Source: Nitrospirota bacterium (GTDB taxonomy: Bacteria; Nitrospirota; UBA9217). Taken from it: DNA of 64,000 bases. Position 1 is the stretch's first letter; every line of letters begins with the position of its first letter. Below the pieces are notes generated by a model. That model was not told where the DNA came from. It saw only the letters and a program-made list of their open reading frames with translations, and did no database searches. The translations under genes and the position numbers were made by a program. The stretch spans positions 165,809 through 229,808 of the forward strand of contig CAWIYV010000004.1 of the NCBI GenBank assembly GCA_963840455.1. Direction: 5' to 3'. Shown here piece by piece: positions 12,124 through 14,235 of the stretch.

Positions 12124-13317
12124 TTATTCGGAGCTTTCCTCAGGAGCACGGGGGCCAGCGCTGGCTGAAGGAGCTGTCCGGAGTTCCGGCGCCAGGATCT
12201 GTTCCCGCGTTATGCTGTCCAGGGGAACGGTCAAGACCTCGAAGGACGTAAGCGGCGGATCGAGCGCGTTCAGGAGGGTCCGGGCGCGCTCCTCGTCGGC
12301 AGCGCAGGCCAGCGCCCGGATCTCCGTTCCCTCCCGGACGACCGTGACGCTTTCCGGGACATCCATCGGTCCACCGGCGTCCGTCTGTGCCGCGCCGGCG
12401 AAAGCCGCCATTACGGAGCGGTCCAGCGTGGTCATGATGCGCTTGCCGCCGCGGTACAGTTCCTGCTCGGAGAGGAAGGAGAGCAACACCTGCTGAAGCG
12501 CCCGCAGATGACAGGGCCTGACATTCTCGATCCCGGCCGATGGCAGATCGAACCGCTTTGAGGACTGGTCGCGGAGCTGCAGGGGCTCGGCAAGCGCCTG
12601 CTGGTATTCCTCCTGGGTCAGCAGCTTCGCCTGCTGCATGTTGAACAGCACCTGCTCCTGCCGATGGCGCGCCTTGTCCGGCCGTTTAAAAGGATCATAG
12701 TACTTCGGGTTCGGCAGCATGCCGGCGAGCAGCGCAGCCTCAGCGTTCGTCAGCTCCGCGGCATGCTTGTCAAAGAAATAACGGCTCGCTGCCTCGATGC
12801 CGTGCAGGTCGGGCCCCCACTCCACCTCGTTCAGATAGATCTCGAGGATCTGTCGCTTGGTCAGGACCTCCTCGGCCCGCCGGGCAAGCACGAACTCCCG
12901 CAGTTTCCTCCCGATAGTCTTCTCCTTCGACAGCAGTACGTTCTTGATCATCTGCTGGGTGATGGTGCTGCCGCCGCGGGCGAAGCGCTTCTTCTGCACG
13001 TCGTGCTTGAGCGCCTCCCAGACCGCCTTGTAGTTGACGCCTTCATGGCCGAAAAAGGTGTCGTCTTCGGCGGTCACGACCGCCTTGATGGCGATATCGG
13101 GCAGCGAGGAGATCGGCACCCAAACGCGGAACTTCCGTTCGTAGTAGGATGCGAGGGGCCTGCCGTTCCGGTCCAGCACCTCGGACGCTGCAGCAGGGCG
13201 ATAGTGTTTCAGGACGGAGATGTCAGGAAGATTCCTGAGGGACAGGAACACCCAGACCGCGGGGACCAGGATGAGCAGCGCCAGAGCGGCAAACCCCCAG
13301 AGAAGGATCTTTTTCAT
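12124..13317 (-). CDS. Peptidoglycan transglycosylase (GT51), no transpeptidase domain
   Basis: EDDTFFGHEG, GGSTITQQ, RKLRE, KRQILEIYLN motifs. Confidence 0.9.
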   Translation of the reverse strand: MKKILLWGFAALALLILVPAVWVFLSLRNLPDISVLKHYRPAAASEVLDRNGRPLASYYERKFRVWVPISSLPDIAIKAVVTAEDDTFFGHEGVNYKAVWEALKHDVQKKRFARGGSTITQQMIKNVLLSKEKTIGRKLREFVLARRAEEVLTKRQILEIYLNEVEWGPDLHGIEAASRYFFDKHAAELTNAEAALLAGMLPNPKYYDPFKRPDKARHRQEQVLFNMQQAKLLTQEEYQQALAEPLQLRDQSSKRFDLPSAGIENVRPCHLRALQQVLLSFLSEQELYRGGKRIMTTLDRSVMAAFAGAAQTDAGGPMDVPESVTVVREGTEIRALACAADEERARTLLNALDPPLTSFEVLTVPLDSITREQILAPELRTAPSASAGPRAPEESSE

Positions 13318-13326
13318 CGCAGGAGG

Positions 13327-13482
13327 TTACTTTTTCCCGGTTTCGTTCTTGTGATCGTGGTCATCCCTCCTACAGGAGGGACCAGGGTCGATGCCTCAGC
13401 CACCGCCGCCGCGGCGGAGGGATCCGATCACGAGCAGGAACGCGATGCCGATGAGAATATTGATGAACTGGTTGTCACCCAT
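13327..13482 (-). CDS. Candidate small membrane selenoprotein (51 aa, Sec at codon 29)
   Basis: MGDNQFINILIGIAFLLVIGSLRRGGGG-TGA-GIDPGPSCRRDDHDHKNETGKK-TAA; SECIS-like hairpin 11 nt after TGA; read-through fills the intergenic gap. Confidence 0.6.
13354..13395 (-). promoter_or_regulatory. Putative bacterial SECIS element
   Basis: After UGA: 11 nt, then UGG-UCCCUCC-[UGUA]-GGAGGGA-UGA-CCA, plus lower AUCG/CGAU stem. Confidence 0.55.
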
Positions 13483-13525
13483 GGTTTTCTTTTCCCCGTT
13501 GGTCTTGAAAGGATAATGTTACTGC

Positions 13526-14059
13526 CTACTCCTTCTTATCCAGCATGGCCTGAATGACCTGCTGTGCCGCAGGACTCATCCAGTCAGCTGCGCCGATGAT
13601 CTTTCGCCGGACTACCCCCCCGCGGTCGACAAGATAGGTCTCGGGGAACTTGAAGGTTCCATAGGCCCTTGATACGGACTGGTCGGGGTTCAGGAGCACC
13701 GGCAGGGCAAAGCGGTTCTTCTGCATGAACTGCCCGACGGCGCCTGCTCCGCCTTCGTCCACGCTCACGGCGAGGATCTCGAGGTCCCTGCCGAAATAGG
13801 CACGGTACAGGCGCTCCAGCGTCGGGATCTCCTCGACGCACGGCGGGCACCAGGTCGCCCAGAAGTGCACCACCACGACCTTGCCGCGGTACGATGACAG
13901 GTTCACCGTCCTCCCGTCCAGCGACGGGAGCTGGAACTCGGGCGCGCGATCACCTTCCTGAACGATCCTCACCCGCTGCCCGCCGTTCTGCCCGAAGAGG
14001 AACAGGGCCCCGACAACTGCCAGGACCGCGATGACGATGATCAACGCATTTTTCTTCAT
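13526..14059 (-). CDS. TlpA/ResA family thiol-disulfide oxidoreductase
   Basis: FWATWCPPC, FPETY, N-terminal anchor. Confidence 0.92.
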   Translation of the reverse strand: MKKNALIIVIAVLAVVGALFLFGQNGGQRVRIVQEGDRAPEFQLPSLDGRTVNLSSYRGKVVVVHFWATWCPPCVEEIPTLERLYRAYFGRDLEILAVSVDEGGAGAVGQFMQKNRFALPVLLNPDQSVSRAYGTFKFPETYLVDRGGVVRRKIIGAADWMSPAAQQVIQAMLDKKE

Positions 14060-14096
14060 CCTCTCACAGACCTCCCTTGTCGACGAGCGCTCCCGC

Positions 14097-14125
14097 GAAG
14101 CACCCCGCAGCAAGCTGCGGGGCAT
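14097..14125. repeat. Palindromic hairpin related to element II (IS200/IS605-type end or MITE remnant)
   Basis: GAAGCACCCCGCAGCAAGCTGCGGGG, similar to the hairpins in 55466-55580. Confidence 0.6.
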
Positions 14126-14235
14126 GCATTCGTTCCTGGGCGCATGAACGGAAATGCATTATACCGCGGCGTGAGCGGGCGGGCAAGGAAAAATGTGGTT
14201 TTAAAAACAGAACCCCTCTGTTATAATGAACATCT

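Follow-up and report, generated by a model that had tools for sequence, protein, structure and literature searches.

Does an in-frame UGA in the short gap between a TlpA-like gene and a peptidoglycan glycosyltransferase gene of an uncultured Nitrospirota bacterium end a peptide, or does it encode selenocysteine (Sec)? The question arises on the minus strand of the 64,000-nucleotide stretch analysed here (the window; positions 165,809 to 229,808 of contig CAWIYV010000004.1), where a micro-open reading frame (micro-ORF) opens with an ATG at 13482-13480, 43 nt past the stop of the TlpA-like ORF. Twenty-eight sense codons precede a TGA (13398-13396), 22 further in-frame codons lead to a TAA (13329-13327), and 9 nt separate this stop from the transglycosylase ATG at 13317. 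A model that had seen only the sequence (the original prediction) had described this layout, and every coordinate of it, both gaps included, proved correct; it had gone on to propose a new small membrane selenoprotein. That proposal is supported by the conservation of the UGA, a coding signal beyond it, a covarying hairpin and the Sec machinery of the host genome. On these comparative grounds we consider it very likely that the micro-gene is a genuine gene for a Sec-containing membrane peptide, an estimate that leaves its biochemical role aside. It looks like a previously unrecognised selenoprotein family of about 50 residues, restricted to, and near-universal within, an uncultured Nitrospirota lineage.

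The peptide and its internal TGA are widely conserved within one family of the phylum. A six-frame search with the read-through peptide against 41 related genomes supplied a first set of orthologues, with matches spanning the TGA in all 5 other genomes of the genus and in many other genera of the same family. A profile built from an alignment of sixteen orthologues was searched, at E-values up to 0.001, in 64 genomes of the family, which equals the whole order. It matched 52 of these genomes, and 51 of the matches, covering 18 of the 19 genera, contained exactly one TGA. The 52nd match, from a genome without selA (G012), was rejected as a Cys homologue, being a spurious frame over other genes. 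Among 401 genomes sampled across the phylum, none of the 337 outside the family gave a full-length or TGA-containing match; two of them (G146 and G224) gave weak matches (E about 8e-4, 19-30 residues, no TGA), which we did not count as homologues. An exact DNA pattern made of the UGA and the commonest hairpin variant, run against one genome per species for 185,579 species, matched 14 contigs, all from this Nitrospirota lineage. One of the 14, from a metagenome-assembled genome (MAG) labelled Betaproteobacteria (JBLMWN010000212.1; L078/L170), carries a Nitrospirota-type locus with micro-gene, UGA and hairpin and with a glycosyltransferase 59% identical to that of the window; this contig is probably mis-binned or mislabelled.

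For alignment and counting we compiled 48 distinct gene copies, 17 found via the glycosyltransferase and 31 via the peptide, and the counts given below refer to these copies unless stated otherwise. Peptide identity among the conserved copies goes down to about 25-45%. The internal codon 29 is TGA in all 48, and in none is it TAA or TAG, whereas the terminal stops are TAG in 26 copies, TAA in 17 and TGA in five. As the internal TGA is invariant while terminal stops turn over at the same depth, the internal UGA is unlike a true stop.

Beyond the UGA, the copies carry the coding conservation that the original prediction had called for. Per-position entropy has a three-base period, with values of 0.35/0.57/1.71, 1.32/1.64/1.93, 0.85/1.19/1.75 and 1.32/0.77/1.74 in codons 2-5 after the UGA, which form an unpaired linker, and of 0/0.15/1.59 (codon 12) and 1.10/0.43/1.90 just 3' of the stem. 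Of the pairwise differences within the 15-nt unpaired linker, a share of 0.253 is synonymous in frame 0, versus 0.080 and 0.139 in the other frames, and only two length changes occur between UGA and hairpin, each of +3 nt. In-frame coding conservation is thus found downstream of the UGA, the signal being weak in the far tail.

The hairpin lies within the ORF, its 5' arm at 13382-13375 and its 3' arm at 13370-13363, forming an 8-bp stem closed by a UGUA loop (13374-13371) that consists of the Cys-37 codon plus one base. The stem begins 13 nt past the UGA and the apical loop 21 nt past it, the latter in keeping with the loop spacing originally given for this element, which had been likened to a selenocysteine insertion sequence (SECIS). 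When 57 nt from the UGA onwards were aligned and the 8-bp stem was counted, 88.5% of positions were paired over the 48 sequences, and five of the eight pairs had changes on both sides. Doubly changed stem cells numbered 21 versus 5.7 expected, and the covariation score was reached by none of 500 shuffles; six slid registers were all worse (48.7-62.5% paired). Variants of the stem include CCCUCC/GGAGGG, CCCGUC/GACGGG, CCUUUC/GAAAGG and GCCU/AGGC, among others, and several of the changes alter the amino acids of both arms together. Stem length ranges from 6 to 8 bp across the lineage. In seven or eight copies that encode Lys-Arg in place of Arg-Arg, the register is shifted by one base, with a GUA or UGUAA loop, which lowers the counted pairing. 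RNAalifold independently predicted the core five pairs, four of them with compensatory changes. A lower stem (AUCG/CGAU and UGG/CCA) that had been described as well is confined to the window and its nearest relative and is not kept in the alignment.

Two copies have lost the downstream Cys and kept the stem: L023, with Gly and a GGAC loop, and L088, with Arg and an AGGA loop. Since the stem survives the loss of the Cys, the RNA structure is the more strictly conserved object, and part of the P-F-C-R-R-D motif may be imposed by the RNA stem. The stem is followed on its 3' side by GACCACGAUC, and no terminator-like site was found on either strand between 11900 and 14400. We therefore ruled out an intrinsic terminator or attenuator as a reading of the hairpin, which has no T-run.

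According to the consensus passage of a 2026 review (PMC13188914, Fig. 2 legend), a bacterial SECIS has an (upper) stem that measures 4-16 bp and a loop of 3-9 nt with G at one of its first two positions; it lies 16-37 nt from the UGA and has a minimum free energy of at most -7.5 kcal/mol. With its 8-bp stem, UGUA loop with G at position 2, 21-nt distance and -13.1 kcal/mol, the window element agrees with all four criteria as that passage words them, and the original comparison with the bacterial consensus stands to this extent. A crude script applying the four criteria passed 35 of the 48 copies. The closest likeness comes from the same genome, where the SECIS of selD has an identical geometry (UGA, 13 nt, 8-bp stem, 4-nt loop, loop start at 21 nt) and the two SECIS elements of fdhA likewise present a small G-containing loop, starting 18 and 21 nt past the UGA. 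The loops themselves differ, being UGUA in the micro-gene, GGUCU in fdhA and GACC in selD. Like these canonical SECIS genes, the micro-gene combines an in-frame UGA with a stem-loop inside the ORF, and the same machinery would serve it; it differs in that it encodes a membrane peptide of 51 residues and not an enzyme, and in that Cys homologues are almost absent.

This machinery is present in full. The window's genome (4.03 Mb, 14 contigs, 100% complete by marker genes) encodes SelA (E 9.4e-158), the C-terminal wing domain of SelB (E 2.5e-21), tRNA-Sec (selC) and SelD (E 1.4e-107), as the original prediction would have it. Two tRNA-Sec genes with anticodon TCA lie at C1:311722-311816 and C9:389439-389529; both are above the Rfam cut-off (66.5 and 52.9 bits) and both are called tRNA-SeC by ARAGORN. 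Most bacteria usually have one such gene. The selD gene itself contains one in-frame TGA. So does each of five formate dehydrogenase alpha-like genes, two of them full-length, and in all five the TGA sits at the expected ...AR[YLI]-U-HS... site. With two tRNA-Sec genes, a Sec-containing SelD and several Sec-containing formate dehydrogenase-like proteins encoded in its genome, the host lineage is clearly selenium-dependent. Across the family, selA was found in 55 of the 64 genomes, among them 31 of the 32 high-quality ones. The five genomes with the micro-ORF and without a selA match are all less than 90% complete, and G012 (96% complete) has neither selA nor the micro-ORF. In five genomes of four genera (G006:C141, G009:C33, G048:C162, G018:C78 and G014:C146), selA lies divergently 1.0-1.3 kb from the micro-ORF, adjoining the TlpA-like gene; this arrangement is a possible genomic link of the operon to selenium metabolism.

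As for the product, AlphaFold2, run with the 16-sequence alignment, modelled residues 3-26 as one helix (predicted local distance difference test, pLDDT, 86-90) and left the tail without structure (pLDDT 41-59). The most hydrophobic 17-residue segment averages 2.68 on the Kyte-Doolittle scale (median of the 48 copies). Summed over all copies, the residues before the hydrophobic core include no K/R and 27 D/E, those between core and Sec 83 K/R and no D/E, and the tails 260 K/R and 269 D/E. This positive-inside pattern implies an N-out/C-in orientation and places the Sec-bearing tail in the cytoplasm, so that the product is predicted to cross the membrane once and to end in a disordered tail on the cytoplasmic side. 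Sec would be residue 29 of 51, 22 residues from the C-terminus. It is flanked by Gly at -3 (44/48 copies), -1 (43/48) and +1 (38/48), with Trp or Gly at -2 in 34 copies and Pro at +4 in 29 and at +6 in 35. The conserved Gly residues before the UGA lie outside the SECIS, which points to a constraint on the protein. A Cys follows eight residues past Sec in 44 copies and nine past in two, then R-R-D. Of the residues to which the original prediction had attached a redox or metal-binding role, the downstream Cys is retained in these 46 copies, yet it coincides with the SECIS loop and is missing from the two stem-keeping copies mentioned above; the proposed His tail is not a conserved feature, as the 45 His residues in the 48 tails hold no fixed position.

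Canonical SelB/SECIS recoding is well supported by these sequence comparisons as the expression mechanism. The ribosome would start at ATG 13482 and translate the hydrophobic helix first. SelB, with Sec-tRNA, would then insert Sec at the UGA of codon 29, directed by the compact in-ORF stem-loop. The Cys-37 codon would supply the loop of this element, and the Pro/x and Arg-Arg-Asp codons its stem. In the resulting product, a short acidic N-terminus would lie outside and a flexible tail in the cytoplasm, where the motif G-[W/G]-G-Sec-G-x-[D/E]-P-G-P-[F/L]-Cys-R-R-D would stand close to the membrane surface, at a distance of about 6-9 residues, and give way to an end that is charged and disordered.

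Cys-containing relatives are scarce. A profile search of 1.84 billion representative proteins returned six hits, one of which, P0016, is a full-length protein of 52 amino acids with Cys at the Sec position (E 7.5e-12) and 63% identity to a Sec form. The interchange of Cys and UGA at codon 29 that the original prediction had anticipated therefore exists, but it was seen only once: no further Cys form was found among the 1.84 billion representatives or the 64 family genomes, and a word-indexed protein search with P0016 returned P0016 alone. Of 594 pattern matches to the Cys homologue in a metagenome scan, none was confirmed, and a metagenome DNA pattern with TGY in place of TGA before the commonest hairpin variant gave no matches and has no TGA baseline; neither result says anything on how rare Cys forms are. 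Looked up in a protein atlas, P0016 obtained best scores of 0.83, 0.78 and 0.77, under the meaningful level. When the read-through peptide was used in the word-indexed search, all 14 hits were N-terminal pieces of 28-48 amino acids, covering 51-55% of the query. The database pieces end at the TGA in the six of these 14 hits that were inspected and in five of the six profile hits. Because the entries stop at the TGA as N-terminal pieces, the micro-gene is currently mis-annotated in databases.

Several observations weigh against a Sec-encoding gene. The 71-nt fold of the window has a z-score of -0.99 and is equalled or surpassed in stability by 27 of 200 shuffles, so the window hairpin alone is unremarkable and the case rests on comparison. 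Thirteen of the 48 copies fail the crude four-criterion script; in eight of them the aligned hairpin, at -6.4 to -7.4 kcal/mol, narrowly misses the cut-off of -7.5, and in the other five folding gave a different, shorter or larger-loop hairpin. An Rfam scan of 13250-13550 at E-values up to 10 returned two chance-level hits and no SECIS family. Conservation of P-F-C-R-R-D cannot be told apart from that of the RNA stem. The coding signal is weak in the far tail (synonymous share 0.073 vs 0.066 and 0.049), whose purine-rich end could also serve the next gene as ribosome-binding site. In all 48 copies the +1 frame, too, stays open for at least 25 codons past the UGA, for which reason we dropped openness of the frame after the UGA as evidence. 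Nine family genomes have selA and lack the micro-ORF. Finally, the sole Cys homologue, P0016, comes from two short metagenome contigs, whereas most selenoprotein families have many Cys homologues.

The positions of the micro-gene, its parts and its neighbours are compiled in the table below.

Features of the micro-gene locus in the window and of related loci
Feature	Position or label	Strand	Basis or remark
Complete micro-gene: 51 codons, UGA read as Sec at codon 29, then TAA	13327..13482	-	Same layout in orthologues
In-frame UGA, proposed selenocysteine codon 29	13396..13398	-	TGA in 48/48 distinct copies
Single hydrophobic helix, predicted membrane anchor, codons 3-26	13405..13476	-	AlphaFold2, hydropathy, charge counts
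SECIS-like hairpin, overlapping codons G-P-S-C-R-R-D	13363..13382	-	Folding, 48-copy alignment
Cys-37 codon UGU, first three apical-loop bases	13372..13374	-	Alignment of copies
Charged, poorly conserved C-terminal tail and TAA stop	13327..13362	-	Charge totals, pLDDT 41-59
Upstream gene: membrane-anchored TlpA/ResA-like thioredoxin-fold protein (WCPPC)	13526..14125	-	Pfam/NCBIfam matches
Downstream gene: 397-aa membrane-anchored peptidoglycan glycosyltransferase (GT51)	12124..13317	-	Pfam Transgly match
Promoter-like site 5' of the TlpA-like gene	14158..14186	-	Consensus match only
selD and five formate dehydrogenase alpha-like genes with in-frame TGA	C14:252661-253584; C10:288503-290509; C9:237513-239510; C8:21854-22297; C8:29058-29501; C13:14877-15695		Window's genome
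13 glycosyltransferase loci without the micro-ORF	L077, L085, L087, L091, L092, L095, L096, L105, L109, L112, L113, L117, L118		

The upstream neighbour matches the Pfam families AhpC-TSA (4.9e-29) and Redoxin (7.5e-26) and the NCBIfam model ResA (1.6e-35, under that model's cut-off); its true start is likely the internal ATG at 14059. The promoter-like site in front of it (TTGCCC-17-TATAAT) agrees with the consensus at 10 of 12 positions and is a candidate promoter of the operon. The downstream neighbour matches Pfam Transgly over residues 52-228 (3.6e-59), and no transpeptidase domain was detected in it with Pfam. Its residues from about 230 to 397 (12124-12640, minus strand) match no Pfam family and form an extension of ~170 residues that is conserved in the lineage. 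On the plus strand, a 297-codon open frame (12664-13557) runs antisense to the 5' end of the glycosyltransferase gene, the micro-gene and the 3' end of the TlpA-like gene; this frame arises from the G+C-rich coding sequence of the opposite strand and is no gene.

The order TlpA-like gene, micro-gene, glycosyltransferase gene holds in 44 of the 48 copies, a count biased by the 17 copies that were found through the glycosyltransferase; among the 31 found via the peptide, 27 keep it. In most copies of this kind (type 1), the glycosyltransferase gene has the same orientation and the stop-to-ATG gap is 9 nt. Seen from the glycosyltransferase, 42 of 55 anchored loci in named MAGs have the micro-ORF directly upstream and 13 do not. 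At least eight of these 13 keep a TlpA-like gene upstream, and three of these MAGs have a type-2 copy (see below) elsewhere. As TlpA is kept without the micro-ORF, the TlpA-glycosyltransferase pair would be the older backbone. Two soil metatranscriptome contigs span both the UGA and the 5' end of the following gene, one of 240 nt that is identical over 13196-13435 and one of 290 nt with 21 differences over 13197-13476. Being assemblies from libraries that possibly contain DNA, they give no more than a hint that the micro-gene is co-transcribed with the next gene.

The remaining four copies (type 2) represent a paralogous form that keeps ORF, UGA and hairpin in unrelated contexts. In three MAGs they lie between a gene for a DksA-type (DksA/TraR) zinc-finger protein and one for an EptA/EptB-like phosphoethanolamine transferase, and in one MAG the copy adjoins a DUF3786 gene. 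One MAG has both types (L107, type 1; L166, type 2). The type-2 N-terminus is of MSEQT type (labels L163, L171, L169, L054 and L166). In L169, a long-read MAG, the type-2 N-terminal half is out of frame at about 2633-2800 of the minus strand, with UGA, hairpin and tail intact; this break is either an assembly indel or the sign of a decaying copy. Since ORF, UGA and hairpin move together as one unit, the hairpin is unlikely to belong to the glycosyltransferase gene as a 5' element.

Which other explanations might account for this pattern? The best surviving one makes the peptide itself secondary and the micro-gene a selenium-sensing leader, in which Sec read-through would couple to translation of the glycosyltransferase and selenium scarcity would lead to termination about 70 nt upstream of it. 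Such coupling is suggested by the short gap and shared orientation in most type-1 copies, by a three-gene unit free of terminator-like sites, by the divergent selA genes nearby in five genomes and by the poorly conserved tail. A leader peptide, however, needs neither a conserved transmembrane (TM) helix nor a positive-inside pattern nor a G-x-G-U-G motif upstream of the SECIS; besides, the four type-2 copies stand without a glycosyltransferase, the micro-ORF is missing at 13 of 55 glycosyltransferase loci, and no reason is known to us why cell-wall synthesis should be gated by selenium. We thus regard this explanation as improbable.

Still less probable is a membrane peptide of 28 residues that truly ends at the UGA, followed by a conserved hairpin that has another role, in stability, processing or downstream translation, with no Sec involved. 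Gene callers predict exactly this product, the hairpin is the most conserved element downstream and could impose P-F-C-R-R-D by itself, and the +1 frame is open as well. Yet a real stop would drift among TGA, TAA and TAG, which codon 29 does not do in any copy, and a true 3' untranslated stretch is hard to square with a linker that shows three-base periodicity and excess synonymous change and in which the indels of +3 nt stay in frame. P0016, moreover, reads through with Cys as one protein of 52 amino acids, the geometry of the hairpin equals that of the selD SECIS of the same genome, and, in the absence of a T-run, the hairpin is no intrinsic terminator. That a chance ORF and a chance hairpin happen to share an intergenic spacer with no gene in it might be argued from the window alone, with its short ORF and a stability matched by shuffles, but has a negligible probability given that ORF, UGA and hairpin are kept across 18 of 19 genera, down to about 25-45% identity and in different contexts.

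The Sec-encoding membrane peptide that we favour can be compared with several known systems. In the eukaryotic SELENOK and SELENOS, an N-terminal TM helix is joined to a disordered cytosolic tail in which Gly, Pro and charged residues abound and Sec is flanked by Gly; SELENOS forms a Cys-Sec selenenylsulfide. One N-terminal TM helix with a disordered cytosolic tail also fits the topology and disorder predicted here, which makes this class the nearest architectural analogue. There is no detectable homology (no Pfam hit), and the bacterial peptide is about half the size; in SELENOK and SELENOS, Sec stands at the extreme C-terminus and the SECIS lies in the 3' untranslated region, whereas here Sec would lie near the membrane and the bacterial-type SECIS within the ORF. 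Among bacterial proteins, MgrB, PmrR and AcrZ are small single-pass regulators of envelope or signalling enzymes, and MgrB needs conserved Cys residues for its function. They resemble the micro-gene product as single-helix peptides of roughly 30-50 residues that are encoded beside a membrane enzyme or act on one; to our knowledge, none of them contains Sec.

Compared with described selenoproteins, the peptide appears to stand alone. It matched no family at E-values up to 1 in Pfam-A or in NCBIfam release 20.0, the collection that includes the models of the curated selenoprotein families. Table 1 of a May 2026 review lists 119 prokaryotic selenoprotein families and subfamilies; none of those tabulated was recognised as a match, the NCBIfam models of the small Gly-flanked ones giving no hit and the few defined through CDD or PANTHER being compared by their table description. 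The small bacterial selenoproteins in that table include KCU-star/DUF466 (NF033934), UXX-star (NF041114, NF041211), selenobacteriocin (TIGR04081, SGUG) and hypothetical protein DG (NF049953, GUxG). As tabulated, they share with the peptide described here a short length, a Gly-flanked Sec and, typically, truncation at the TGA in databases, but none of their models matches it. Going by the family names, KCU-star and UXX-star carry Sec at or near the C-terminus, unlike the present peptide with 22 residues still to follow. None is named a membrane protein in the table, and the review's text does not contain the word "transmembrane" and mentions "membrane" twice, both times for other proteins. Nor does a radical-SAM maturase gene flank the micro-gene, whose neighbours are the TlpA-like and glycosyltransferase genes. 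Passages of the deep-Sep paper and of a preprint on eight new selenoprotein families name neither such a protein nor the phylum. In full-text searches of the literature, no account turned up of a single-pass membrane selenopeptide from bacteria or of selenoproteins in this lineage.

What might the peptide do? The most plausible reading of a Gly-flanked Sec near the membrane, in most copies followed by a Cys at +8, is that of a small selenol/thiol redox centre. Extending this reading, Sec-29 and Cys-37 might be joined in a selenenylsulfide redox loop on the cytoplasmic side of the membrane, and the peptide could be a redox-active accessory or regulator of envelope enzymes, a role that the sequence features suggest and that we put forward tentatively, as one possibility with somewhat less in its favour than against it. 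A direct partnership with the TlpA-like reductase, an idea that followed from the original prediction of co-expression, is unlikely. The catalytic domains of the TlpA-like and transglycosylase proteins are periplasmic, while the Sec/Cys tail is cytoplasmic, judging by the distribution of charges; on this topology we judged the peptide unlikely to be a direct substrate or redox partner of the TlpA-like protein. A bolder and rather doubtful proposal is that the family might be a convergent bacterial counterpart of SELENOK/SELENOS, acting as a redox- or selenium-dependent subunit or regulator of the GT51 enzyme (type 1) and of the EptA-like transferase (type 2). If this were true, cell-envelope synthesis would be tied to redox state or selenium supply. 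In this view, the constraints on RNA and protein would have co-evolved, since one set of nucleotides forms the SECIS stem-loop and encodes the best-conserved motif of the peptide.

In summary, the present work would add to the prokaryotic selenoproteome a family without a detectable relative. Gene callers stop at the TGA, which leaves no more than a stump of 28 residues in the databases; Cys forms are so scarce that pipelines based on Cys/Sec pairs would see almost nothing, and the length of the product is far under the usual cut-offs. The placement of the SECIS loop on a conserved Cys codon represents a dual constraint on RNA and protein and calls for caution against reading every residue near a SECIS as catalytic. 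Within the lineage, the near-universal presence of the micro-gene suggests an important role for its putative product at the inner face of the membrane, beside the enzymes of the cell envelope.

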